A stretch of 64,000 nt of DNA from an uncultured virus (IMG/VR IMGVR_UViG_3300020048_003296). Its lineage: Duplodnaviria > Heunggongvirae > Uroviricota > Caudoviricetes. Each line of letters begins with the position of its first letter. Within the stretch, counting starts at the first letter, position 1. The stretch lies in IMG/VR virus record IMGVR_UViG_3300020048_003296, positions 1 to 64,000 of that record; one strand, 5' to 3'. Below, piece by piece: positions 9,424-30,212 of the stretch. A program made the translations under genes and the position numbers. Below the pieces are notes generated by a model. That model ran no database searches. It was not told the origin of the DNA and worked only from the letters and a program-made list of their open reading frames with translations.

Positions 9424-10643
9424 AAAACACCATCGAAGGATTTAACCAACCGATTCTATTACAATTAGGGCTTACCGGAGACATGGCTATATTCCTTCGA
9501 TGGCTTTTATCATTTATGTCCGGTGGAAAAACAAGACACATTATAGTTGACGGTAATGTTTTCCATTGGATTAAGTATACAAAGGTTATAGAAGATTTAC
9601 CTGTTATATTTAAAAATATCCACGCGCTCCGCCGGATGCTTCCTAAAATATCATCAAGCAAAGAAAACGAAAAACCGCTTATTTTTAAAGCCGTACATAT
9701 TCCCGGTCATGGCACAGAAACATATTTTAGATTCGATCCCACTATTCTGGAACGATTAGAAGGAACCAAAATGAGTGATCCTTTTTTAACTGCCGAGGAC
9801 TTGCCTAAACAACCAAAAGAAAAAAACAAACAACCGCGAGCATATAATAAAAATGCTTATTCTTTATTGGAACAAATTAAGAAAATAAAGATTGACGGTA
9901 AAGAAATATTCCCACATGAGCTTCCCGAGGACGCAACGTACTATACCAATACCTATGCTACATTTGAAAGTTATGTCATGGGTTTATATACGGGAACATT
10001 TATACAAGAGCATCCGATTGATTCCATTGCCGATTGGTTTAAAATAAAATATAAATATTACTACCAGCAAAAGAAAATTAAAGCTTTATTGCAAAGTTGC
10101 AAGGGCGATTGGTTACAAACAGAAAAAGTATTATTAAATGCTGTTAAGAATTATTCATTGTGGTTTAGCGATGGTTCAGAAATGCAAAGTAAAAAGAAAT
10201 TACCGCGCAATATAAACACATGGATTTATTTTAGGAATGAAAATATATCTATGTTCTATGTTTGCCTATTGGAAGAGCCGACTTCATTACGCGAGGCAAA
10301 CGCGGATAAAGCGTATAATTCATTATCACCAAAAGCACAGAATATTATGTTAAAACTTTATAACGATAATTGGGATGGATTCACTTATTGGAACAATGTA
10401 AAAGATATTGTGAAATGGTATCGACAATATGCGGATAAATTATGTGAAAAAGATTCCAATTGTATATGGTGGATCGGTAATGGGCTTTATTCGTTCCTTG
10501 AGAATTATAAAGAATGGTTGTTATCATTTACTAACAATCCTAATCCAGGAAACATTGGTATCGGAAATAAAACATGGTCATGCTACATATCGTCAAAAAA
10601 GAAAGAACACGATATAAGTATCAATATCCCATCATCATTATAG
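9420..10643 (+). CDS. Putative replication initiator-like / DNA-binding protein
   Basis: N-terminal region resembles wHTH domains of phage replication proteins (WIKYTKVIEDLP); position after parB. Confidence 0.4.
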   Translation: MKNTIEGFNQPILLQLGLTGDMAIFLRWLLSFMSGGKTRHIIVDGNVFHWIKYTKVIEDLPVIFKNIHALRRMLPKISSSKENEKPLIFKAVHIPGHGTETYFRFDPTILERLEGTKMSDPFLTAEDLPKQPKEKNKQPRAYNKNAYSLLEQIKKIKIDGKEIFPHELPEDATYYTNTYATFESYVMGLYTGTFIQEHPIDSIADWFKIKYKYYYQQKKIKALLQSCKGDWLQTEKVLLNAVKNYSLWFSDGSEMQSKKKLPRNINTWIYFRNENISMFYVCLLEEPTSLREANADKAYNSLSPKAQNIMLKLYNDNWDGFTYWNNVKDIVKWYRQYADKLCEKDSNCIWWIGNGLYSFLENYKEWLLSFTNNPNPGNIGIGNKTWSCYISSKKKEHDISINIPSSL

Positions 10644-10873
10644 GAGCGAGTTATACACAAGTTATGCACACATAAGCATAAAGGAACGATTCTTTGTGTG
10701 GATACGTATATGCGCAATAAATGCCCGTGGAAATCAATCGGCGCGGAAGAAAAGTGCTTTGACGATATCCAGGAATATGAGGATGCATCGCTCAAAAGTA
10801 CCGAAAACAGCGTGGATTCCGTTTTTCGATGATATGTTACGCGAAACCAAGGCGTGCAAAACCGTCTGTATAA

Positions 10874-10960
10874 CGGTTTCCTGCGTCAACACGGGGTTTT
10901 ATAGCATTCCGCGTATAAAATCACGTTGGACCCGTTTTGCGTGCGTTATGGGCGATATTC
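10874..10960 (-). repeat. Dispersed 87-bp repeat, copy D
   Basis: Gap-free alignment with copies at 30586, 38901 and 53289. Confidence 0.8.
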
Positions 10961-11077
10961 ACGTATAATGGAAGAAAATAAATCGTAAAAAATAATTTAA
11001 ACATTTTAATTCTATATTACATAATGAATTATCTATTAAAAAACAGTAAAAATAAGTAAAACGGCATGAAAAACCGC

Positions 11078-11106
11078 TTTACAATTATTATGCAATACGT
11101 TATTGT
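11078..11106 (+). promoter_or_regulatory. Sigma70-type early promoter
   Basis: TTTACA-17 bp-TATTGT with an A/T-rich UP-like region upstream. Confidence 0.65.
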
Positions 11107-11233
11107 TCTTAACGTCAACGAGAGAAAACGTTGACGGCCGGGAACGAGTACGAGGCACGCCCACAAACACGCTGAAAGGAGCAGCGTAGGTAGTCCATCA
11201 CGGCACGATAACATACACGTTTTCGCGTGTATG

Positions 11234-11288
11234 CCGATCCGCGTTTTAATACGCGCTGACGAGTCGTTGAAAATTACGACGAAATCGG
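11234..11288 (+). ncRNA. Hammerhead ribozyme, type III (cleavage after C11239)
   Basis: CCGA-UC, stem I CGCGU/ACGCG, core CUGACGA, stem II GUCGU/ACGAC, GAAA, UCGG closing stem III. Confidence 0.92.
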
Positions 11289-11312
11289 AAAGTTACTTTT
11301 ATGGAGGACGAT

Positions 11313-11612
11313 ATGAAAAGCAATGCAGCGAAAGTTTACGTAACCAAAAAAACGGTCAACCAGAAATACGATCCGACGGTGATAACCACGTATGTATCGG
11401 GAACAGCGATATTGACTATGTGGGAATGCGTTGAATTGAAGCTTGCGGATGCCCCGAATGTAATTGGACAAGATCATGAGCACGAGAAACGCCTTATTGC
11501 GTTGTTTGAGAAAATCGCAGGTTGTACAATGGAAGAAATCGATGAATACGACAATATACAACGGGCGATAGAGTACGATGATCCAATGGGTTGTTTGGCA
11601 GATTACGAATAA
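11313..11612 (+). CDS. Ribozyme-flanked early protein of unknown function (99 aa, acidic C-terminus)
   Basis: GGAGG RBS at 11303; stop codon directly abuts the second hammerhead. Confidence 0.8.
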   Translation: MKSNAAKVYVTKKTVNQKYDPTVITTYVSGTAILTMWECVELKLADAPNVIGQDHEHEKRLIALFEKIAGCTMEEIDEYDNIQRAIEYDDPMGCLADYE

Positions 11613-11670
11613 GGACGAAACGCGGGACTTCAAACCGCGTCTGTGATTTTATTATCACACTGATGAGTCC
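11613..11670 (+). ncRNA. Hammerhead ribozyme, type II (cleavage after C11641)
   Basis: GGAC-GAAA, stem III CGCGG/CCGCG, UC, stem I UGUGAU/AUCACA, core CUGAUGA, GUCC. Confidence 0.93.
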
Positions 11671-11702
11671 ATCATCGGAAAGTTACTTTTATGGAGGATG
11701 AT

Positions 11703-11951
11703 ATGAGCAACCTGCGTTTTTCTTCCCAGTCAGCGTGTGATAAGTTCCACGCGAAATTGTCAAAACTGGAAACATCGTATGCCTTGCGCGAATTTGCACC
11801 CGATGAGATTTACGAAACGCTTTTGGGTGATTTTAATTACGGCAGTAAAAATGCAGTGGCGCTAATCGAGAAATGGCGCGTGCGATACAAGCACAATGAG
11901 GACAAGTTCGATCCGCGCGATTCACTCGGCATGGAAAGGGAGATGATGTAA
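11703..11951 (+). CDS. Early hypothetical protein
   Basis: Same 33-nt RBS leader as ORF 11313. Confidence 0.75.
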   Translation: MSNLRFSSQSACDKFHAKLSKLETSYALREFAPDEIYETLLGDFNYGSKNAVALIEKWRVRYKHNEDKFDPRDSLGMEREMM

Positions 11952-12136
11952 TGAAAAAATATATACTAATTATTACCCTCGATGATGGGAATATAAAAAT
12001 ACGACACTATAATGATGAAAAGGCGATAGCGCGTGAAGTTGCCGCTTGTAATCGTTGCATAAAAGAGTTTAATGTTCCAATGCATTTTATAGCATACGAG
12101 TTAAATTCCATTTATGCCGAAGGTGCAATGAAATGA
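11951..12136 (+). CDS. Early hypothetical protein
   Basis: Coupled ORF; resembles the next ORF. Confidence 0.6.
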   Translation: MKKYILIITLDDGNIKIRHYNDEKAIAREVAACNRCIKEFNVPMHFIAYELNSIYAEGAMK

Positions 12137-12339
12137 AAAATAAAAATTATCTTATGATTCTAAATGACCGCGTGGAAGGCACACAACAGATTTTCTGGTT
12201 TGAAACGGAAGTGGAGATGATGTTTGAAATAAAAGCGGCAAACGTCTTAATAAAAAAACACAATCTAAACCAGGAAGTTGAAGCATACAAATGCCCAGTA
12301 AAGCAAGTTTATGTTTTTGGGGAAATGAAGAACGTATGA
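12133..12339 (+). CDS. Early hypothetical protein (possible paralog of 11951-12136)
   Basis: ATGA overlap; similar YxL(I/M)I...G...AY pattern. Confidence 0.6.
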   Translation: MKNKNYLMILNDRVEGTQQIFWFETEVEMMFEIKAANVLIKKHNLNQEVEAYKCPVKQVYVFGEMKNV

Positions 12340-12599
12340 AAAAAATATTATCACCTGAACATAAGGCCAAACTGAAGGCAGGACGCGAGCGCGCAAAAAA
12401 AGAAAAGCGCGTAGGCATGATCGATCAAACCGAAACCATTAAACCCGTTAAAAAAGAATTACAAGTGATTGGTTTCGGGTTTGAGCGTGGAGACAAGATT
12501 TGCGTGCCAATATTTGGTTCAGAACGCAATACATTTAAAGGCGTTATATTTGATACGCCGCAAGAAGCGAAGGAGGCACTTGATGTTCGCAGAAAATAA
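12336..12599 (+). CDS. Hypothetical protein
   Basis: ATGA overlap; basic N-terminus LSPEHKAKLKAGR. Confidence 0.55.
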   Translation: MKKILSPEHKAKLKAGRERAKKEKRVGMIDQTETIKPVKKELQVIGFGFERGDKICVPIFGSERNTFKGVIFDTPQEAKEALDVRRK

Positions 12600-13128
12600 G
12601 GAAAAGACAGATTTATTTTTACAATACTTGCCTATGATTGAACAGGCAGTTTGGAAAAACGTAAAACGATTTAAAATTGAATTTGAAGAAGTGGAAGGGC
12701 AAGCGTTCCTTGTTTTTTGCGAAGCGATAGAAAAGTTCGATAATACGCGGAATATAAAGTTCAGCACATTTTTATATTCACGATTGAGAACGGTCGCGGA
12801 TAAATATTCAAAGCCAAAAAGCGTTGCCGGTATGCCTGTTAAGAAAGATTTACAGGATTGCACACAAGCAGATTTTATCAATGCTATGGAAACGCTGGAA
12901 ACGGCATTATGCCTATCGGAAGATGCTCAGGGCGTGTTAAATTTCCTTATTAGTCGGGAATGGGAAACGCCAGGAGTTGCACGCACACCGCGCCTACATT
13001 CAGTTCAGAAATGGCTCAAGCAACAATACGATTGGACCGCCGCACGCACAAAAAAAGCGTGGGATGAATTGAAAGTGTGGTGGCAGTCAGAAGGATATAA
13101 TACATTCGATATGGGAGGCACAGTATGA
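12583..13128 (+). CDS. Phage sigma-70 family factor (region 2)
   Basis: AGGAGG RBS; QYLPMI...EEVEGQAFLVFCEAIEKFDNTRNIKFSTFLY resembles sigma region 2.1-2.3. Confidence 0.75.
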   Translation: MFAENKEKTDLFLQYLPMIEQAVWKNVKRFKIEFEEVEGQAFLVFCEAIEKFDNTRNIKFSTFLYSRLRTVADKYSKPKSVAGMPVKKDLQDCTQADFINAMETLETALCLSEDAQGVLNFLISREWETPGVARTPRLHSVQKWLKQQYDWTAARTKKAWDELKVWWQSEGYNTFDMGGTV

Positions 13129-15002: not shown

Positions 15003-15908
15003 ATGCAAGTTGATTTTGCGTCCATGTGCCGTGATTATGGCATAAAGTATAAACAAGAAGTGGACGGGTGGATAAATATAGAATGTCCTATATGCCATCA
15101 TTCTGGTGATCGAGGTTTTAAAGGCGGGTTGAATATCGCAGGCGGATATTTCCATTGCTGGTCTTGCGGCGGAAATAATATAAACACCGTCCTGCGCGAA
15201 TTGCTTTCTGTACAGTATCACGAAATTGATTCTATTCTTGAACAGTATTCCGGTGCTATTTCTATTCGTGAGAAATTGAATGTTAAAAAAAGTTTAGTGC
15301 ATCATTTAAAATTGCCCATTACCACTTTGGATTCCCGATGTAAAAGATATATAACGATACGAAACTTTGATGCTGATTATATAGCGGAAAAATATAAAGT
15401 GGTCGGCATGACATTATCAGGGCAGTGGGCGGGGAGATTGATAATACCGATTTTCTACAATGGAAAGTTAGTATCATATCAAGGCCGTTCTTTATTGAGC
15501 AAAAGAAAATGTGCGGAAATGGAAATACTGCGTTATAAAACATTAAGCATCGAAGAAAGTATTATTGACCCGAAATCTATTTTATATAATCTTGATAATT
15601 GTAAAAAAGATTATATTGTGATAATGGAAGGCGCGTTTGATGTGTGGCGATGGGGTGATAATGCGGCAGGAACATTGGGCACAAGCACAACGGACGCACA
15701 AAAAAGATTGATGATTAATTATAAAAGAATTATTATTTTATTTGATCCTGAAGATGAAGCGCAGGCACGAGCAAAAAAACTGGCAAATGAATTGCAGGCG
15801 ATTGGTGGAAATATAATCGAGGTTGTGAATACCGAGTTGGGGCATGATCCTGGCGATATGTCCGAGGAAGAAATTATGGAACTTAAAAAGGAATTGAGAG
15901 TATGGTAA
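15003..15908 (+). CDS. DNA primase (zinc finger + TOPRIM)
   Basis: CPIC...CWSC, EGAFD, FDPE, HDPGD. Confidence 0.88.
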   Translation: MQVDFASMCRDYGIKYKQEVDGWINIECPICHHSGDRGFKGGLNIAGGYFHCWSCGGNNINTVLRELLSVQYHEIDSILEQYSGAISIREKLNVKKSLVHHLKLPITTLDSRCKRYITIRNFDADYIAEKYKVVGMTLSGQWAGRLIIPIFYNGKLVSYQGRSLLSKRKCAEMEILRYKTLSIEESIIDPKSILYNLDNCKKDYIVIMEGAFDVWRWGDNAAGTLGTSTTDAQKRLMINYKRIIILFDPEDEAQARAKKLANELQAIGGNIIEVVNTELGHDPGDMSEEEIMELKKELRVW

Positions 15909-16693
15909 CAATAAACAAGAGTGAAATATATTATGGATACGTTTATAAAGTAACATGCATAAATGGCCTAATATATATAGGGCAACACAAAAGTGGTTCA
16001 TTTGATCCAAAATATTTGGGCTCCGGAATAAAACTAATCAAAAAAAATATAAAAGCCATCGAGATACTTGAATTTTGCACAAATGCAAAAGAATTAACAG
16101 ATAAAGAATATATGTATATAAATAAACATGCATCATTTAATCCTTCTATCGGTCTTAATGTTAAATATCGTAGAAACGGGTTTTCGGATATAAAAGATAG
16201 TAAAAGAATAGCAGAATCTTTGGGTGATAACACGGATCTTATTATTGAGAAAGATAATATAATTGTAACATTAACAGAAAAATTAAAAGAACAGGAAAAA
16301 TTGTTGTTACAAGTAAAAGGAATAGTAAATATTGAATCGATGAATGAGCGCGAATTAGCCATTGATGATTATATTGAGGAAGAACTTGAAAGGAGAATGA
16401 GTGATTATTTGGATTATATGGATGAAAATAATGAGGCTGATGGAAATTCCATATACAATCAAAAACAATTAGAAGTGTATGATGAAATAAAAAGTGAAGT
16501 TGAGTATTATGAGAATGGTTTATATTTATTTGATTTAGAAAACACAGAATATACAACGGAACGCACAGATATTATTAAAGGCTTACAATTTTTTAACACG
16601 CAAGTAAATAAACAAATAGAAATAAATCAGTTCTGGTATCAACCGAAAGAGGTAATAAAACAATATACAGATGCTATATTTGGAGAATTATAA
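15902..16693 (+). CDS. GIY-YIG domain protein (homing endonuclease-like)
   Basis: GYVY...IYIGQH, YLGSG. Confidence 0.7.
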   Translation: MVTINKSEIYYGYVYKVTCINGLIYIGQHKSGSFDPKYLGSGIKLIKKNIKAIEILEFCTNAKELTDKEYMYINKHASFNPSIGLNVKYRRNGFSDIKDSKRIAESLGDNTDLIIEKDNIIVTLTEKLKEQEKLLLQVKGIVNIESMNERELAIDDYIEEELERRMSDYLDYMDENNEADGNSIYNQKQLEVYDEIKSEVEYYENGLYLFDLENTEYTTERTDIIKGLQFFNTQVNKQIEINQFWYQPKEVIKQYTDAIFGEL

Positions 16694-19834: not shown

Positions 19835-20176
19835 ATGCAGGAGGAAAGAATGTTTTATTTGAAGAAGCGCATTGAAGTTGCTGGTGCTCATTGCCTTACA
19901 TTGGATTATCAAAGTAAATGCGCGAATGTCCACGGCCATAATTGGTGGATCACCGTTTACTGTAAAACCGAGGAATTGAATCAGAATGGCATGGTCACTG
20001 ATTTCACGCATATTAAAGAAAAAGTCATGGTATTGGATCATCAGAATCTAAACATGATTTTTGCTTTTAATCCTACGGCGGAAAATATCGCAAAGTATTT
20101 GGTTGAATCCATCGAGCATTGTTATCGTGTGGATGTGATTGAATCAGAAAATAATGAGGCATCGTATGAGATATAA
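19835..20176 (+). CDS. queD: 6-carboxy-5,6,7,8-tetrahydropterin synthase
   Basis: AH, CANVHGH, DF, LDH, PTAENIA motifs. Confidence 0.92.
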   Translation: MQEERMFYLKKRIEVAGAHCLTLDYQSKCANVHGHNWWITVYCKTEELNQNGMVTDFTHIKEKVMVLDHQNLNMIFAFNPTAENIAKYLVESIEHCYRVDVIESENNEASYEI

Positions 20177-21254
20177 ATGTTATTTGTGCAATAAAGAATT
20201 TACTAATAGACATGCACTCGCAGGCCATATTTCTCATCATAGCAGAACACAAAAAGATTATGATTTAAAAGGGATTCATACGAGCAAAACTATGTTAAAA
20301 AGATATGCATCCGGTGAAATAAATAGAGGCCCTTACACCACAGAAACACGGAATAAAATTTCTATTTCAAAACTAGGAATAAAAAATCCTAATTACAAAA
20401 ACGGCGTTTCAATAATGTTAAAAAATATTATTGCCGATAAAAAAGAATGTCTGGTTTGCGGGTCTACAAAAATTTTATGTGTTCATCATATAGATAGAAA
20501 TAATGAAAATAACGCGGAAAATAATTTAGTGGTTCTTTGTAAACACTGCCATGATAAGTTGCATCAGCGTGGATATAATTTTAGAAATGAAGAATGGTCA
20601 GTACAGATTAATGAATTTTTTACATCCATTCAGTGCGAAGGTAAAAATGTAGGTGTAGCAAGTCATTTTATACGATTAGCCGGATGCTCTATAAAATGTG
20701 CGTGGTGCGATTCTAAATCCGCGTGGGGGGCAAGCAAAGGATATTTTTATAATGACGTTTTGGATATTTTTAATCAATTTATTTTGAAACATCCGAATGT
20801 TACTAATTTGGTAATAACAGGCGGCGAACCGCTGGAACAAAATTATTACCCAATTGTTTTATTTGCTAAGATTTTTGGATTCACCGTGGAGGTAGAAACA
20901 AGTGGTTCGCCTTTATTACAAAACTCATTAAAAAGCAGAATGTATAATGAAGTGGATTTATATAATATTTCACCAAAGTTATGGATCGATAATTTCGGTA
21001 AAAAATTCACACGCCAAAAAGTTGCGTTCTTGCTACATCATTATGTTAGTATTTTTAAATTTGTCATTGACTCAGATGCAGATTTTGATAAAGTTAATGC
21101 CTTTATTACAAGACACAAAATACCAGAATCAAAAATTTATATCCAATGCCAATTTGAGAATAAATCAATGATGGAAAAATGTATTGAGCATATAAAAGAT
21201 TCAGGAAGAAAACGATTATCAATCCAGTTACATAAACTAATAAACATACGATAG
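20166..21254 (+). CDS. queE: 7-carboxy-7-deazaguanine synthase with N-terminal C2H2/HNH endonuclease fusion
   Basis: SIQCEG, radical-SAM CSIKCAWCD, ITGGEP, ETSG, ISPK, QLHK; N-terminal HHID..N..N..CKHCH. Confidence 0.85.
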   Translation: MRYKCYLCNKEFTNRHALAGHISHHSRTQKDYDLKGIHTSKTMLKRYASGEINRGPYTTETRNKISISKLGIKNPNYKNGVSIMLKNIIADKKECLVCGSTKILCVHHIDRNNENNAENNLVVLCKHCHDKLHQRGYNFRNEEWSVQINEFFTSIQCEGKNVGVASHFIRLAGCSIKCAWCDSKSAWGASKGYFYNDVLDIFNQFILKHPNVTNLVITGGEPLEQNYYPIVLFAKIFGFTVEVETSGSPLLQNSLKSRMYNEVDLYNISPKLWIDNFGKKFTRQKVAFLLHHYVSIFKFVIDSDADFDKVNAFITRHKIPESKIYIQCQFENKSMMEKCIEHIKDSGRKRLSIQLHKLINIR

Positions 21255-21265
21255 GGGGAAAAGGA

Positions 21266-21826
21266 ATGATTGACAGAATAGGTGCAGAAAATTGTGTGCG
21301 TGGATTGCTCGAATACATTGGGCAAGATCCAAGTCGCGAAGGTTTGAAAGATACGCCCAAACGTGTTATAAAATCTTATGATAAACTTTTCGGTGGGTAC
21401 ATGCTTACCGCGGAACAAGTGCTTGGAACATCATTTGCAGAGTTTGGTGATTATGATGAAATGATTATTCTAAAAGATATTGATTATTTCAGCACTTGCG
21501 AGCACCATATTTTGCCTTTTTCGGGTAAGGTCCATATTGCATATATACCGAATAAAAAGGTAGTTGGTATTTCAAAGTTGGCGCGCCTTGTTGAAATGCA
21601 TAGCAGGCGCTTGCAGATTCAAGAACGCATGACCGCAGATATCGCATTGGACATTGAAAGAATACTTGAACCGTTGGGCGTTGCGGTGCTTGTCGAAGGA
21701 CAGCATTATTGTATTAAGGCGCGAGGTGTAGAAAAAATTAATTCAATAATGACCACAAGCAAGTTGACCGGCGTATTCCGCAAGATTGAAGTGCGTGAGG
21801 AATTTTTTTCATTGGTGAGGAAGTAA
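21266..21826 (+). CDS. folE: GTP cyclohydrolase I
   Basis: TPKRV, CEHHILPF, GISKLAR, QIQERMT, HYC. Confidence 0.95.
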   Translation: MIDRIGAENCVRGLLEYIGQDPSREGLKDTPKRVIKSYDKLFGGYMLTAEQVLGTSFAEFGDYDEMIILKDIDYFSTCEHHILPFSGKVHIAYIPNKKVVGISKLARLVEMHSRRLQIQERMTADIALDIERILEPLGVAVLVEGQHYCIKARGVEKINSIMTTSKLTGVFRKIEVREEFFSLVRK

Positions 21827-21827
21827 A

Positions 21828-22697
21828 ATGGGCTCATTAAACCTCATTGATAATAAAGAAAAACACCGTATTAGGGATGAAACAAAAAAGGCACGTATTA
21901 ATGGCCCTTTTAAACCAATACTATCAAAAGACGGGAAACCAATTCTTACATCAATATGGTGCCCATCCACCGAGGACATGCAAGAGTATTACGAGGTTCC
22001 TTTTTACGCTGAAATTAAATTGACAGGAAGAACATTTCCTTATGTAGTGCGAAATTTGATTCAGTTATACTCTAATGAAGGGGACACTGTCTATGATCCC
22101 ATGATGGGCACCGGAACCACATTGTATGAAGGAAATATACTGAAGCGAAAAGTATTTGGTTCTGATTTACATGCTGGGCGCGTTGAAAGTTTTAAGACAC
22201 GTTGGTCCAAATATGTTTCAAAAAAATTACCCAAAATTGCATTATGTTCCGCAAGTGAAATACCAATGCCGAATAATAGTGTGGATCTTTTGATAATGTC
22301 TTTTCCATGGTTCAGCAGTTGGGAATTTGCGGATGATCCCAATAATGAAAGTATGGATAATTACAAAGAATTAGAAGAGTTCATGCAATTAACGGAAAAA
22401 ATATATACAGAAATAAAACGTGTATTAAAGCCGGGTGGATTTGCTTGCAATATTTTGGGCAATACATACAGAAAAGGCGTTTATTATCCTATCACAATGA
22501 AGTCCATGGGAATAATTGAAAAAGTTGGGCTAAAATTGTGGTATCAGTTTTGGAATATGCGCGTGGATATCAATTCAATTAAATTTCCATGGAATCGTTC
22601 CGGCATTGATACCGTGGTAAATAAGGCTGGAAACGGAATAGCATGGGATATCCATGAAGATATTATTGTTGCGCGAAAACCAGGAGGATCAAAATAA
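21828..22697 (+). CDS. SAM-dependent methyltransferase, DNA amino-methylase-like
   Basis: Motif I YDPMMGTGT; atypical motif IV SFPW; RVLKPGG. Confidence 0.8.
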   Translation: MGSLNLIDNKEKHRIRDETKKARINGPFKPILSKDGKPILTSIWCPSTEDMQEYYEVPFYAEIKLTGRTFPYVVRNLIQLYSNEGDTVYDPMMGTGTTLYEGNILKRKVFGSDLHAGRVESFKTRWSKYVSKKLPKIALCSASEIPMPNNSVDLLIMSFPWFSSWEFADDPNNESMDNYKELEEFMQLTEKIYTEIKRVLKPGGFACNILGNTYRKGVYYPITMKSMGIIEKVGLKLWYQFWNMRVDINSIKFPWNRSGIDTVVNKAGNGIAWDIHEDIIVARKPGGSK

Positions 22698-23341
22698 TGA
22701 AAACTGTTATAATTTGTTCCGGTGGATTGGACAGTACCGTTCTTTATTATCACGCAAAAGTGCAAGGATACGAAATAATCCCAGTTAATTTTTCTTACGG
22801 TTCAAAACATAATCACATTGAACGAGAACGGGCAAAACTACTTATACCGGATTTGCGTTGTATCGATATTGATTTGTCTTTTCTCAAAAGTTCTTTATTG
22901 TCCGGACAAGACGCAATTCCACAAGGACATTATGAAGCCAAGAATATGAAATCCACGGTGGTTCCTTTTCGCAATGGCATAATGCTTTCTTATGCTATTG
23001 CAATTGCCGAAAATGAAGAGGCGGGGTGTGTTATGCTTGGATCACATGCCGGAGATCACACAATATATCCAGATTGTCGCCCATCATTTACCCGCGCAAT
23101 GAATCAGGCCAGTAAAAAAGGCACATTTAACGGTGTTAGAGTTTTATCACCATTTAATAACTATTCAAAAGGCGGAATCGTAAAAGTAGGAAAAAGCATG
23201 GGCATTGAAGCTATTATGAATAAAACATGGACATGCTATGAAGGACAGGAAATTCATTGCGGAAAATGCGGGTCATGCGTTGAAAGAAAAGAAGCGTTTG
23301 CGTTTGCCAGAGTTGCCGATTTAACTGGGTATAGGGAATAA
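22697..23341 (+). CDS. queC: 7-cyano-7-deazaguanine synthase
   Basis: SGGLDS, VPFRN, YPDCR, TWTCY, CGKCGSC. Confidence 0.95.
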   Translation: MKTVIICSGGLDSTVLYYHAKVQGYEIIPVNFSYGSKHNHIERERAKLLIPDLRCIDIDLSFLKSSLLSGQDAIPQGHYEAKNMKSTVVPFRNGIMLSYAIAIAENEEAGCVMLGSHAGDHTIYPDCRPSFTRAMNQASKKGTFNGVRVLSPFNNYSKGGIVKVGKSMGIEAIMNKTWTCYEGQEIHCGKCGSCVERKEAFAFARVADLTGYRE

Positions 23342-23342
23342 A

Positions 23343-24188
23343 ATGATAATCTACCATGGCGGCATTGGAAAAGACATACAAGAAGTAAGTAACGAGAAAT
23401 TCAATTGCCTCATTACTTACGCCGCAGTTAAAAAAATAAAGTGGCAGCCATGGTGGGACAAATTATTCATTGACTCAGGCGCGTTTTCCGTATTCAATTC
23501 GGGAAAAACAATTGATATAGAAAAGTACATTGATTATTTACTTGGATGGGAAGCGGAAAAGAAAGACATCGTGTATGCGGCACTCGATGTTATTGGCGAT
23601 CCTGATGCCAGTTATAAAAATTATAAATTGATGTTGAAACGTGGATTAAATCCATTGCCCGCATATCATATTGGGGAAGAGCTTATTTATGCCGCTAAAT
23701 ATATAAAACACACAAATTATATAGCATTGGGGGGAACGGTCGGTTCAAGCCCTAAAAAAAGATTGCGTTTTTTCAATACGATGTTTGAATTAAATCCTGA
23801 TCCTAAAAAAATTGGTTACCATGGATTTGGTGTTACTGCGCCACCATTGGTGATAAAATATCCATGGGCTACAATTGATTCCACCATGGCAATGCGTTGG
23901 GGCATGTTTGGGCAGATATTAACCCCAAAAGGTCGATTTACCGCAATGAATAGCACGAATAGGAATTCACACTTAAGCAGAAAAGGTGAAGCAAATATAG
24001 CAGAATTAAAGCGGACATGGTTTGATACAATTGGGGTCGATTGGGATCTTTTATTGTCTGAGGATAAAATTGGGGCGGCATGCAAGGTATACAATAATAT
24101 TAAGGCATTGGAATATTATGGTTCACTTGTTCCGGCTACATTCAAAGCAAATAATAATCACGTGCTTTCTTTATTGGAGGACGAATGA
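23343..24188 (+). CDS. dpdA: TGT-fold DNA deazaguanine transglycosylase (DpdA-like)
   Basis: DSGAFS, LDVIGD, PAYH, ALGG, HGFG, IDST; sits in the preQ0 cluster. Confidence 0.75.
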   Translation: MIIYHGGIGKDIQEVSNEKFNCLITYAAVKKIKWQPWWDKLFIDSGAFSVFNSGKTIDIEKYIDYLLGWEAEKKDIVYAALDVIGDPDASYKNYKLMLKRGLNPLPAYHIGEELIYAAKYIKHTNYIALGGTVGSSPKKRLRFFNTMFELNPDPKKIGYHGFGVTAPPLVIKYPWATIDSTMAMRWGMFGQILTPKGRFTAMNSTNRNSHLSRKGEANIAELKRTWFDTIGVDWDLLLSEDKIGAACKVYNNIKALEYYGSLVPATFKANNNHVLSLLEDE

Positions 24189-25726: not shown

Positions 25727-26836
25727 ATGCAAACCATAAAAGGAAAATATAATAGCGCCAATGTTATGATTGATTCTATTGATGATACCACACGGGCGCA
25801 GATACAGAACTTTGTAAATAATCCATCATTTGGTAAATCGTATATTGCCATTATGCCAGATTGCCACGCAGGCGCTGGTTCATGTATCGGCTTTACGATG
25901 CAAATGAATGATAGAATTATTCCAGATGTGGTTGGCGTGGATATCGGGTGCGGTATGCTATCATGCAAATTTGACGTAGAAACTTTGGATGCCCGATTAT
26001 TCGATAATTATATAAAAGAAAATATACCATCAGGATTCAGCGTCAACAATAACGAAATAAAACATAATTATTTTTATGAAAAAACAGTGGCGAAACTTGG
26101 CATGGATTTTGGTAGAGTATCGCGTGCAATAGGAACGCTCGGCGGTGGTAATCATTTTATTGAAGCGGGGTTTAGTTCTGATGGAAAACTGTGGGTTACC
26201 ATTCATTCAGGCAGTAGAAACTTTGGAATGCACATTGCGGCGTATCATAGCAATATTGCAAAAAAGTTTTGTAAATTATATGGCGCAGATACACAAGGCA
26301 TTCCATTTTTGTTAGTCGATACGGAACACGGCCAGGATTATATTGCAGACCAACTTATTGGTTCAAATTACGCAAGTTTAAACCGATACACAATGATGCA
26401 GACTTTACAAAAATACTTTGAAAAAGATCCAATGGAATCAATCGAATCTATCCATAATTTTATTGATGGTTCTGGTATGATACGAAAAGGCGCAACGCCC
26501 GCGCATGAAGGACAGAAAGTTATAATCCCTTTTAATATGCGCGATGGTTTGGCAATCTGTTGTGGTAAAGGATCAAAAAAATATAATTATTCCGCGCCTC
26601 ATGGGGCTGGAAGAATATATTCACGCAGTAAAGCAAAAGAAGTATTGGATGTAGATTATTTTCAAGCCGATATGAAACAAGCTGGCGTATTTACCACAAC
26701 GGCAAATAAAGGCACACTTGACGAGTCACCTGATGCTTATAAAGATAAAAATATTATTTTAGACAATATAAGCGAAACGGTGTCTATAATAGAATTCGTG
26801 AAACCAATATACAATTTTAAAGCAGGTGGTGAATAA
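25727..26836 (+). CDS. rtcB: RtcB RNA ligase
   Basis: MPDCHAG, VGVDIGCG, GTLGGGNHF, HSGSR, HN, RKGA, HGAGR, DESPDAYK. Confidence 0.95.
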   Translation: MQTIKGKYNSANVMIDSIDDTTRAQIQNFVNNPSFGKSYIAIMPDCHAGAGSCIGFTMQMNDRIIPDVVGVDIGCGMLSCKFDVETLDARLFDNYIKENIPSGFSVNNNEIKHNYFYEKTVAKLGMDFGRVSRAIGTLGGGNHFIEAGFSSDGKLWVTIHSGSRNFGMHIAAYHSNIAKKFCKLYGADTQGIPFLLVDTEHGQDYIADQLIGSNYASLNRYTMMQTLQKYFEKDPMESIESIHNFIDGSGMIRKGATPAHEGQKVIIPFNMRDGLAICCGKGSKKYNYSAPHGAGRIYSRSKAKEVLDVDYFQADMKQAGVFTTTANKGTLDESPDAYKDKNIILDNISETVSIIEFVKPIYNFKAGGE

Positions 26837-29428
26837 ATGAAAACAGGTTTTTTCTGCGAGGATACACCATGCATTTCTCGTGGTGATGAAAAACCGAAAA
26901 TTAAAAAAATAAAAGAACCAAAAAAGGTGGGTTGCGATTCATGCGGATTACACCATGACTGCAACTCGCCTAAAATGGGTATACAGGGAAAAGGCGAAAA
27001 GAAAATACTTGTTATAATCGATTCACCCGGAAATAATGATGATAAAACCGGAAAGTATTTATCCGGCCAATCGGGAAAAAGAATAACCGATATATTTAAT
27101 TTATATTGCAATTTTAAAAATGATTGTTGGGTAATGGGCGCGGTACAGTGTCATTCCAACAAAGAATTAAAAGGCGCCCCGATATGCGCATGTGCCAACA
27201 AAGTACAAAAGGCTATAAAAGATTTACAACCAGCAGTTATTATCACATTGGGAAAACTTGCTATTGATTCCGTGGTATCGCATAAAATGACAGGACGGCT
27301 TTCCGGATTGGCGTTACACGATTGGGTAGGATATAAAATACCTGACCAAGAATACCAAACAATGATATGTCCAACATGGGAACCGAAAATGCTTATAACT
27401 AATCAAGATAAATGTGATAGGGTTATAACAAGCCAAATGCACTCCCATTTATATGCCGCGATTAAACTAGCAGACAAGCCGTTTTATACTCATAATTATT
27501 TATCTGATATTATTGTAGTCGAAGACGTAAAAGAAGCAATCGATATTCTACAAATTATGCAAAGTAAAAAGGCGTTTGCTTTTGATTATGAAACCACTGG
27601 AATAAAACCATACCGTGAAGGCCATGAGATTTATACAGTATCGATCAGCGATGGTTTTATGGGATATTCATTTCCATTTTTTAATTACCCAGATTTTAGA
27701 ATCGAATGGAAAAAGACGATGCAATGCGAAGCAGGAAAAATAGCGCATAATGCAAAGTTTGAAATGTTATGGACAAAGAATCGCGCAGGATTAGATAATA
27801 CAAAAGGTTATTGGCCTAAAAATACAATTGCTTGCACGATGCTTAATGCCCATGGAATACATAATAAGAAAAAAACAAATTTGAAGTTTCTTGTATATGT
27901 TAATTTTGGAATAGCCGGTTATGATTCTGCTATTGACGCATACCTTGAACCGACAAGTGAAGAAAAAGAAAAATATGGTGCAAATGCCATTAACCAAATA
28001 AAGCAAGCACCATTAAAAGATTTATTAAAGTATGGTGGATTAGATTCCTATTTTACTTATAAATTATGGGAATTACAAAAAACAGAATTGATTCCAGGAT
28101 TTACGCAACTCGGAGCTGATTTCTTTCTTGATAGCGTAAAGGAATTGGCAAAAGCGGAAAATGTTGGTTTGTTGCTTGACGTTCCTAATGCTGAATTACA
28201 ATATAAAAAACTAACAAAGAAAATGGAACGCGCTGAATATGCAATTTCTATATCTGATGAAATAAAAAAATGGGATAAAGAAAAACCATTCCGTGTTTCC
28301 GCGCCTGCCGATTTAACGCATTTGCTTTTTGATTGCTTAAAAATAAAAGCGAATAAGGATGATTTAACACCAACTGGAAAACCAAAATCTGATATTGAGT
28401 CATTGGAAAAATATGATAACGAAATAGTGCAATCCGTTTTAAAATGGCGCAAGATGAAAAAGACACGCGATACATATTTAAACGGTTTTATCCGCGAGGC
28501 ATCGGATGGCATTATTCATACTTCATTGAATCTGCATACCGTCGATACATATAGGAGTTCGAGCAACGATCCGAACTTGCAGAATATTCCGGCGCGGGAT
28601 TTTGAAGTAATGACATTGTTAAGAAAACTTTTAATTGCACGACCAAATCATAAATTGGTTGAGTACGACTACAAAGCCATGGAAGCCGTAATTATTGCGG
28701 TTTATAATAAAGATCCAAATTGGATTAAATATGTTTCGGACGTCAATAATGATATGCACCGGGACATGGCGGCAAAACTTGTTATAAAAAAGAAACAGGA
28801 TGTAACAAAAGATGAAAGGCAGATTGCCAAGAATGGTTTTGTATTTCCAACAGTGTACACTTCCTATTGGAAAAATACGGCAAAGAATATGTGGGATATG
28901 TACAATGAAGAAACATTAATACATTTAAAATCTGAAGGCATAAAAAACTTGGAAGATTATCGTTGCCATGTTAAGAAAGTTGAAAAATGGTTTTGGGAAG
29001 ATCAATTTCCAGTCGGCTATGAGTGGATGAATAAAGCGGTAAAGGATTATGAATCTGCGGGATACGTGACATTGCTCGGTGGTTTTAAATGCTATGGCCC
29101 AATGTCACGCGCTCAAATAATAAATACGCCAGTACAAGGAACGGCGAGTCATTGCAAATTATGGACGTTAAATCGTGTTAGTAAATTGATTGAAAAAAAG
29201 AAAATGAATAGTAAAATAATATTGGAAATACACGATTCAATAATACCGGACATTGATCCTGCAGAAGAATCATATTTGGATTACCAGATGTGGTTATACG
29301 GTACGCAGAAAATACGGGAATACTGGCCATGGCTGATAACTCCCTTGTACGTGGAAAAAAAGGTTAGCGCAGTTTCTGGTAATTGGGCCGAAATGACTAC
29401 GGAAGGCTTATTGCATTATGAAAAGTAA
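26837..29428 (+). CDS. Family A DNA polymerase with N-terminal UDG-like and 3'-5' exonuclease domains
   Basis: CDSCGL UDG4-like N-terminus; FDYETTG, HNAKFE; PNLQNIP, DYKAME, RQIAK, VQG, IHDS. Confidence 0.9.
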   Translation: MKTGFFCEDTPCISRGDEKPKIKKIKEPKKVGCDSCGLHHDCNSPKMGIQGKGEKKILVIIDSPGNNDDKTGKYLSGQSGKRITDIFNLYCNFKNDCWVMGAVQCHSNKELKGAPICACANKVQKAIKDLQPAVIITLGKLAIDSVVSHKMTGRLSGLALHDWVGYKIPDQEYQTMICPTWEPKMLITNQDKCDRVITSQMHSHLYAAIKLADKPFYTHNYLSDIIVVEDVKEAIDILQIMQSKKAFAFDYETTGIKPYREGHEIYTVSISDGFMGYSFPFFNYPDFRIEWKKTMQCEAGKIAHNAKFEMLWTKNRAGLDNTKGYWPKNTIACTMLNAHGIHNKKKTNLKFLVYVNFGIAGYDSAIDAYLEPTSEEKEKYGANAINQIKQAPLKDLLKYGGLDSYFTYKLWELQKTELIPGFTQLGADFFLDSVKELAKAENVGLLLDVPNAELQYKKLTKKMERAEYAISISDEIKKWDKEKPFRVSAPADLTHLLFDCLKIKANKDDLTPTGKPKSDIESLEKYDNEIVQSVLKWRKMKKTRDTYLNGFIREASDGIIHTSLNLHTVDTYRSSSNDPNLQNIPARDFEVMTLLRKLLIARPNHKLVEYDYKAMEAVIIAVYNKDPNWIKYVSDVNNDMHRDMAAKLVIKKKQDVTKDERQIAKNGFVFPTVYTSYWKNTAKNMWDMYNEETLIHLKSEGIKNLEDYRCHVKKVEKWFWEDQFPVGYEWMNKAVKDYESAGYVTLLGGFKCYGPMSRAQIINTPVQGTASHCKLWTLNRVSKLIEKKKMNSKIILEIHDSIIPDIDPAEESYLDYQMWLYGTQKIREYWPWLITPLYVEKKVSAVSGNWAEMTTEGLLHYEK

Positions 29429-30212
29429 TGAAATGTATGGTTATATTTATTTAACGATAAATAGAATAAACGGCAAATATTATATTGGTCAACACCGGGC
29501 AATACGCTATTCTATAAAATACAAAGGTTCTGGAAAATTACTTAAAAATGCTATTAGCAAATACGGGGAAAATAATTTTGATACTGCGATGCTTATGGCT
29601 ATTTATAACAAAAAGACAGTAGCATTATCGCAACTTGCTTTAGACACGGCAGAAGTTAAGTTTATAACGCAATATCGAAAAGAAAATATTCCCTTATATA
29701 ATATTGCGCGTGGTGGAAAAACCGGGACCCCATTAAAAGGAACTAAAGAATATAATATTTTTATAGCAAATATAAGTAAAACGTTCAAGGGTATTCCAAA
29801 AACTGCTGAGCACAATAGAAAAAATAGTTTGGCAAACAAAGGCGAAAATTGTTATTGGTATGGAAAAACTGGAACGGAACATCCCGCAACTGGTAGAAAA
29901 CATTCTGCCGAGGCCAAAGAAAAAAATAGAATTGCACATCTTGGGAAAAGTCCATCAAATAAAGGGATAGCCATGTCCGATGAACAAAAGAAAAAACTAA
30001 GCATAGCGTGTATGGGACAAAAGAATGCAAAGGGCGCAAAACATTCCGCGCAATCAAAAAAGGCACAATCAGAAAAAATGAAAGGCCGTTATGCAGGAGA
30101 AAATAATCCAATGTTTGGAGTACATAGATTTGGTGTTGACTCGCCGCATTATGGTCATCATGAGCCATATAAGAAGAACAGATTAAAAGGAGAAACAATA
30201 AAATGGATTTGA
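29418..30212 (+). CDS. GIY-YIG homing endonuclease with NUMOD3-like repeats
   Basis: GYIY...YYIGQ; repeated H(S/T)xExK and GENNPMFG units. Confidence 0.85.
   Translation: MKSNEMYGYIYLTINRINGKYYIGQHRAIRYSIKYKGSGKLLKNAISKYGENNFDTAMLMAIYNKKTVALSQLALDTAEVKFITQYRKENIPLYNIARGGKTGTPLKGTKEYNIFIANISKTFKGIPKTAEHNRKNSLANKGENCYWYGKTGTEHPATGRKHSAEAKEKNRIAHLGKSPSNKGIAMSDEQKKKLSIACMGQKNAKGAKHSAQSKKAQSEKMKGRYAGENNPMFGVHRFGVDSPHYGHHEPYKKNRLKGETIKWI

Follow-up and report, generated by a model that had tools for sequence, protein, structure and literature searches.

Hammerhead ribozymes that lie close together around single phage genes have been known since the work of Perreault et al. in 2011 (PMC3088659). 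The accessible part of that paper describes prophage hammerheads flanking single genes of varying identity, reports cleavage in vitro for three such arrays and proposes that they process transcripts into gene-length mRNAs (PMC3088659); circular or spliced products were looked for, and this part of the text reports that none were detected. Paired hammerheads are also familiar from retrozymes and viroid-like RNAs, in which, according to the excerpts available of the literature, they flank a unit of a few hundred nucleotides and release it with ligatable ends, the same hammerhead is present in both repeats and restored by the circle, and the cargo is non-coding (PMC4918200, PMC7229834, PMC7761336). 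A third relevant system is engineered: in Tornado-type circular mRNAs, two self-cleaving ribozymes are placed around a ribosome-binding site, a coding region and a stop codon, and the available excerpt states that in E. coli the native RtcB closes this RNA into a circle that is translated (PMC12628768).

The locus studied here has features in common with all three. As in the 2011 clusters (in the part of that paper available), it has hammerheads of mixed topology on one strand around single small variable genes, and it shares with such arrays at least two close hammerheads flanking single phage genes whose identity is not constant (PMC3088659). It is one more case of hammerheads punctuating small phage genes. 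Compared to what the same excerpt describes, however, both ribozymes are fused to one 33-nt translation leader (with one difference between its copies), relatives from metagenomes exchange genes at this leader, and cleavage is a prediction for our locus. The likeness to retrozymes and viroid-like RNAs, as far as the excerpts describe them, extends to the flanked unit of a few hundred nucleotides and its ligatable ends, whereas the two ribozymes of our locus differ in type and sequence and have unrelated stems, the repeated element is the leader and the cargo is an ordinary open reading frame. With the Tornado-type design, as described in its excerpt, the locus shares two self-cleaving ribozymes around a ribosome-binding site, coding region and stop as well as the presence of RtcB. 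The features discussed below, all on the plus strand, are as follows:

11113 to 11233, plus strand: structured leader upstream of the first cut, with a perfect 8-bp hairpin (11113-11136) and an 8-bp hairpin (11212-11233)
11234 to 11288, plus strand: type III hammerhead with AUC site, supported by the reading of core and three stems, RF00008, a descriptor match and the minimum free energy (MFE) fold
11284 to 11316, plus strand: copy 1 of the 33-nt direct repeat, covering the stem III 3' strand, leader, GGAGGA, ATG and the next base
11313 to 11612, plus strand: ORF1, an orphan of 99 aa with GGAGGA before its ATG and no family
11613 to 11670, plus strand: type II hammerhead with GUC site, supported by the reading of core and three stems, the MFE fold and a descriptor match
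11674 to 11706, plus strand: copy 2 of the 33-nt direct repeat, covering leader, GGAGGA and the ATG of ORF2
11703 to 11951, plus strand: ORF2 of 82 aa, without a family in Pfam or PHROGs and the first gene of the message that would start at the second cut
25727 to 26836, plus strand: RtcB RNA ligase gene (PF01139, E 1.3e-63; phrog_1075, E 2.8e-117)

The genome, that of an uncultured lake phage, is a 67,215-bp IMG/VR virus record rated 100% complete, and 64,000 of these bases form the stretch of DNA analysed here (the window). Its GC content is 38%, and profile searches revealed ParB-like, sigma-factor-like, primase, SNF2 helicase, DnaB helicase, sliding-clamp-like, RtcB, family A DNA polymerase and homing-endonuclease-like genes, the last at 15902-16693 and 29418-30212. 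A sigma-70 region 2-like protein (12469-13128; PF04542, E 2.7e-5; phrog_351) is encoded directly downstream of the small-gene block that contains our locus. Further downstream lies a 7-deazaguanine gene set (19835-24185) for PTPS/QueD-like, radical SAM QueE-like, GTP cyclohydrolase I, methylase, QueC and transglycosylase-like (phrog_887) proteins; the combination of queC/queD/queE/folE with a transglycosylase-like gene suggests that this phage has modified DNA bases. No canonical tRNA was found in the window, in line with the initial annotation of this DNA, nor in the whole genome. The sigma-70-type promoter that this annotation had placed upstream of the locus did not hold up, as the best candidates have only 9 of 12 matches (10996-11025 and 11078-11106) and such sites are no commoner in the region than in shuffled sequences (7 found versus 8.7 expected).

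The first ribozyme consists of the stem III strand CCGAU, C17, a 4-bp stem I hairpin and CUGACGA, followed by a 5-bp stem II hairpin closed by G10.1-C11.1, GAAA and AUCGG. Its core, its fold, RF00008 and our descriptor (see below) agree on a type III hammerhead with a predicted cut at 11239/11240, as annotated initially. RF00008 aligns over the full length of this copy (1-54) with 42.7 bits (E 1.8e-7 over 2 kb and 5.8e-6 over the whole window), which is significant but below the gathering score of this model (48.5), and an Rfam search of the window at gathering scores gave no match. The MFE fold is a three-way junction (z -1.22; 22 of 200 shuffles fold equally well), and loops I and II, read from the sequence, could form 4 U-A pairs. 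Directly adjoining this hammerhead is the hairpin 11212-11233 of the upstream leader. In relatives from three lake-water runs, the stem of this hairpin is the same but its 6-nt loop (11220-11225) reads as the exact reverse complement, so that the hairpin is flipped.

The second ribozyme has a different layout that runs from GGAC and GAAA via a stem III hairpin closed by A-U, C17 and a 6-bp stem I hairpin to CUGAUGA and GUCC. Core, MFE fold and descriptor match all support the type II hammerhead that had been annotated here, with a predicted cut at 11641/11642. Its MFE fold is again a three-way junction, with a z-score of -3.56 and none of 200 shuffles folding as well. The dedicated type II model RF02276 (Hammerhead_II) had no match in the genome at E<=10, this hammerhead included, and RF00008 (Hammerhead_3) aligns its 5' half alone (22.5-22.9 bits), being the best member of clan CL00010 in a 111-nt search (22.5). 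The check with Infernal and Rfam that the initial annotation had proposed was thus borne out by the significance of the first copy and not by its score relative to the gathering threshold or by the type II model. We see no clear counterpart of the loop I pseudoknot that is typical of type II hammerheads; loop I could instead form a 5-bp A-U pairing with 11608-11612, a flank that differs in the one relative seen. The 9-mer ACGAAACGC of this ribozyme (11616-11624) recurs 197 nt downstream inside ORF2 (11813-11821), probably by chance. The recurrence allows RF00008 an alternative fold of type III that spans 11634-11823, includes an insert of 143 nt and scores 22.9 bits; we discarded this alternative, the type II fold being the stronger of the two.

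Since neither motif reaches an Rfam gathering score, we wrote our own descriptor that covers the three hammerhead topologies and demands the invariant core, an NUH site, at least 4 bp in every stem and hairpins of 11 to 60 nt. On both strands of the 67,215-bp genome it matches exactly twice, at 11234-11288 and 11613-11670 and with the same cut sites, while only 1 of 300 first-order Markov genomes contains at least one match and none of the 300 contains two. Both copies hold the full invariant core (CUGACGA / GAAA / AUC and CUGAUGA / GAAA / GUC), including the A15.1-U16.1 pair, surrounded by three helices of 4 to 6 bp with a G10.1-C11.1 closing pair. They are separated by 374 nt on the coding strand, and the number of full motifs expected per genome is 0.003. 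The two motifs are thus very probably genuine hammerheads and, as judged from their sequences, very probably active in cleavage.

Both ribozymes are followed by nearly the same leader. The two copies of the 33-nt direct repeat (100% and 97%, with one difference and a spacing of 390) share a 25-nt core that occurs exactly twice in the window versus 0 times expected, and copy 1 begins with the last five bases of stem III of the first ribozyme. The start codons are located 25 nt (ORF1) and 33 nt (ORF2) downstream of the respective ribozyme 3' ends. As the same 33-nt leader and ATG follow each ribozyme, the locus reads as a unit of ribozyme, leader and gene that is repeated twice and not as a bracket around ORF1, and the second ribozyme would go with ORF2 no less than the first goes with ORF1.

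ORF1 itself is present as initially described, with a ribosome-binding site and a TAA stop codon (11610-11612) that abuts the GGAC at 11613 with which the second ribozyme starts. Its product had been labelled an early, possibly anti-defence protein, a guess from gene position to which no family, homologue or confident fold lends support: searches against Pfam and PHROGs had no match, no homologue besides ORF1 itself was found among 5.8 billion clusters, and the AlphaFold model (pLDDT 35) has no confident fold with all Atlas matches below 0.8. A 761-aa repeat protein that appeared as a weak homologue in a full HMMER search was discarded, as its score came from nine copies of a 25-residue motif. 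An inverted repeat of 16 nt (15 of 16 positions complementary) links 11509-11524 inside ORF1 to 11708-11723 in codons 3 to 7 of ORF2 and encloses the second hammerhead as well as the ORF2 leader; it could hold both cleavage products together or mask the start of ORF2.

No close relative of this region was found by searching 11000-12200 against GenBank phages with blastn, by IMG/VR peptide scans with ORF1, ORF2, the DUF932 protein and an upstream protein of 407 aa or by an IMG/VR search with a 22-nt stretch of the leader. A 19-nt stretch of the leader occurs at 11 loci in JGI metagenomes, which have at most about 30 nt in common with the window (3 of the 11 by blastn) and show no hammerheads at E<=5. 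The relatives on which we rely are therefore DNA contigs of at least 80% likeness from three lake-water runs of three studies, with 40 of 299 rows of differences listed. The public runs listed for 10000-13000 include no RNA run with this sequence.

The hairpins of the upstream leader are covered by contigs of all three lake runs, and so is the first hammerhead, in which the only difference among the 40 of 299 listed is a C>T change at 11260, the free core position N7 (two of the three runs). By contrast to this conserved ribozyme, the genes around it are exchanged. ORF1 is mostly uncovered, with a depth of 0-0.7 in two runs and a single 188-nt contig in the third, and a contig of run X3 joins the region at 11612, where another gene ends in front of the second hammerhead. 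At 11680, contigs from each of the three runs come in from other sequence, and at 11705 one contig passes into another open reading frame; because of these joints within it, leader copy 2 (11674-11706) is a mosaic junction. ORF2 is covered at about 93% identity, with differences at 11711 and 11714 within the inverted repeat. These data show the ribozyme-leader modules to be what is stable here, with exchangeable genes in between. In the same operon, 11949 is joined directly to 12132 in all three runs, i.e., the 182-nt stretch 11950-12131 is missing, which corresponds to a 61-aa ORF (11951-12136) and is a difference of cassette type.

The location of these hammerheads ahead of small genes is in line with what we found for other phages. 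Our survey of IMG/VR with a core pattern, which favours type I and III hammerheads with GUC/GAC stem II, yielded at least 126 loci in at least 118 records, many of them fragments. Among the matches listed, a ribosome-binding site with an open frame follows within 40 nt downstream for 41 of 120 hammerheads and within 80 nt for 60 of 120, compared to 1 of 120 for the opposite-strand control. A position ahead of a gene thus appears to be a habit of phage hammerheads. Three contigs (L110:1-1220, L055:1-812 and L068:1-660) carry arrays in which two or three type I hammerheads resembling each other are spaced by 236-402 nt and the repeat comprises only the ribozyme and a short flank with different sequence in between, and none of these three records encodes RtcB.

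Based on these observations, we consider it fairly likely that the locus contains two genuine 5'-UTR hammerheads of successive small genes, which sit at the borders of exchangeable cassettes and would divide the transcript into messages of gene length. The motifs, their layout, the common leader and the gene exchange are directly apparent in the DNA, and cleavage is predicted because of the chemistry of hammerheads. During rightward transcription, the first hammerhead would cut at 11239/11240 so that the folded leader upstream (11113-11233) would be lost from the transcript, and the second would cut at 11641/11642, 29 nt past the stop codon of ORF1. Each new message would start with a 5'-hydroxyl and a stem I hairpin, followed by the 33-nt leader with its ribosome-binding site, and the 3' end of the ORF1 message would be formed by the stem III hairpin and bear a 2',3'-cyclic phosphate. 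One long transcript would in this way be turned into gene-length messages whose translation and decay are freed from the upstream context. Such independence fits a region in which relatives exchange genes exactly at the leaders. 5'-hydroxyl and hairpin ends have established effects in bacterial mRNA decay, and it is from these and from hammerhead chemistry that we infer an effect on stability and insulation. A synthetic parallel is provided by insulators of the RiboJ type, in which a hammerhead directly upstream of the ribosome-binding site strips off upstream RNA context; unlike these, ours is a natural locus for which insulation is a proposal.

Alternatively, the cuts might serve to destabilise or uncouple ORF1, for example if a host RNase gained access to the new 5'-hydroxyl ends, and ORF1 would then be expressed briefly or at a level unlike that of the downstream genes. 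The second cut would indeed fall between ORF1 and the block of overlapping genes that follows it, and the inverted repeat between ORF1 and ORF2 could couple the two messages. We nevertheless regard such control of decay or dosage as unlikely, given that both new 5' ends and the 3' end of ORF1 are hairpins that look protective rather than exposing, that relatives lacking ORF1 cannot have kept the inverted repeat and that two of its positions (11711 and 11714) are changed in relatives.

It is also conceivable, if rather doubtful, that hammerheads and leaders travel with mobile cassettes as marks of exchange and bring little benefit for expression. This idea would readily account for the 33-nt direct repeat at both cassette starts, for the joints and loose ends of the relatives' contigs at 11612, 11680 and 11705, for the 182-nt cassette missing in three runs and for the variation of genes between hammerheads that the available part of the 2011 study describes (PMC3088659). 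Yet both cores are flawless and the sole change listed for the first one (among 40 of 299 rows) affects a free position, which points to selection on catalysis and not to mere hitch-hiking. In addition, the marking of cassette boundaries overlaps with our preferred explanation, processing into gene-length messages, instead of excluding it.

The initial annotation had combined the elements of this locus differently. Its ribozymes, cut sites, ORF, RtcB and missing tRNAs all stand, but it had joined them into a candidate system in which double cleavage frees a 402-nt RNA (11240-11641) that the phage RtcB could close into a nuclease-resistant circular mRNA, and for this system we found no support. 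Hammerhead chemistry soundly predicts that a 402-nt RNA is released with a 5'-hydroxyl and a 2',3'-cyclic phosphate; its ends would carry the chemistry that RtcB joins (PMC8782182, in the excerpt available), and the RNA would hold a ribosome-binding site, the ORF and its stop. The available text on Tornado-type systems moreover reports that E. coli translates an engineered twin-ribozyme mRNA of like contents which its native RtcB has made circular (PMC12628768). According to the same text, however, the engineered system relies on designed complementary "sticky ends" (PMC12628768), and none are predicted for our locus: the ends of the 402-nt product are not expected to pair (summed probability 0.49 for the terminal 40 nt, best pair 0.09), its termini stay in their own hairpins in linear as well as circular folds, and folding it as a linear RNA gives a lower MFE (-93.5) than folding it as a circle (-89.9). 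With one ribozyme of type III and the other of type II, the junction would not restore a hammerhead, with a hybrid stem II of 3 pairs. Circularisation is further disfavoured by the second ribozyme being tied to a downstream leader of its own just like the first, by the exchange of genes around the ribozymes among relatives and by the failure to detect circular or spliced array products that is reported in the accessible part of the 2011 study (PMC3088659). Our literature search found no report of a natural circular mRNA in phages.

The gene for RtcB is intact, as initially annotated: motifs comprising Asp/Cys, Asn-His, His and His-Gly-Ala-Gly-Arg, which we take to be the metal-binding and histidine residues, align with RtcB of Pyrococcus horikoshii. 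This intactness is compatible with a circularising role, but the gene lies 14 kb downstream of the ribozymes in the replication module. The expected co-occurrence of hammerheads and rtcB was not seen either. RtcB is encoded in 0 of the 97 IMG/VR records with full hammerheads among the matches listed, and in 0 of the 25 of these that are at least 90% complete, in a survey to which host-encoded RtcB is invisible. The sole RtcB-positive record among the 118 listed has a pattern match that is not a full hammerhead. Natural hammerhead phages therefore differ from the Tornado-type system of the cited excerpt (PMC12628768) by lacking RtcB in all 97 records listed. Given a baseline of 708 RtcB-encoding records among 50,697 GenBank phage records, a sample of 97 excludes a strong association between hammerheads and RtcB, not a mild one.

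Looking from the side of the ligase, RF00008 had no match at E<=1 in 11 IMG/VR records with related RtcB, and the seven IMG/VR records with the closest RtcB (57-76% identity; 203,760 bases) contain no convincing hammerhead and no ribozyme at gathering score. Two marginal descriptor matches in one of these records (G004), with stems down to 3 bp, were rejected as no Rfam hammerhead family matched at E<=5. These seven phages share with the present one only primase, SNF2, DnaB and polymerase at 31-42% identity, and their rtcB is found elsewhere in the replication module, between the SNF2 and DnaB helicase genes. The much higher identity of RtcB and its different gene position suggest that rtcB is an independently moving gene with horizontal movement within replication modules. 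Most probably it serves RNA repair as a separate member of the replication module, and we found no support for a link between it and the hammerheads, although RtcB could act on some of the ends that hammerheads produce. Taken together, we view a translated circular ORF1 mRNA closed by phage or host RtcB as very unlikely. If it did exist, it would be the first natural counterpart of engineered twin-ribozyme systems and a new form of bacterial gene expression, and the mismatch of ribozyme types would stop the circle from cutting itself again.

Finally, it is highly improbable that the motifs are chance or dead lookalikes that do not cleave, as their failure to attain any Rfam gathering score is set against two complete motifs 374 nt apart (0.003 expected per genome), the presence of every invariant core position in both and the conservation of the first hammerhead in relatives.

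For the biology of phage ribozymes, our survey speaks against RtcB of phages as the partner of their hammerheads, an idea that keeps recurring. This locus stands out in that a type III and a type II ribozyme are each fused to the same translation leader, which is also where relatives swap genes. A ribozyme plus leader thus looks like a portable expression module at the edges of gene cassettes.
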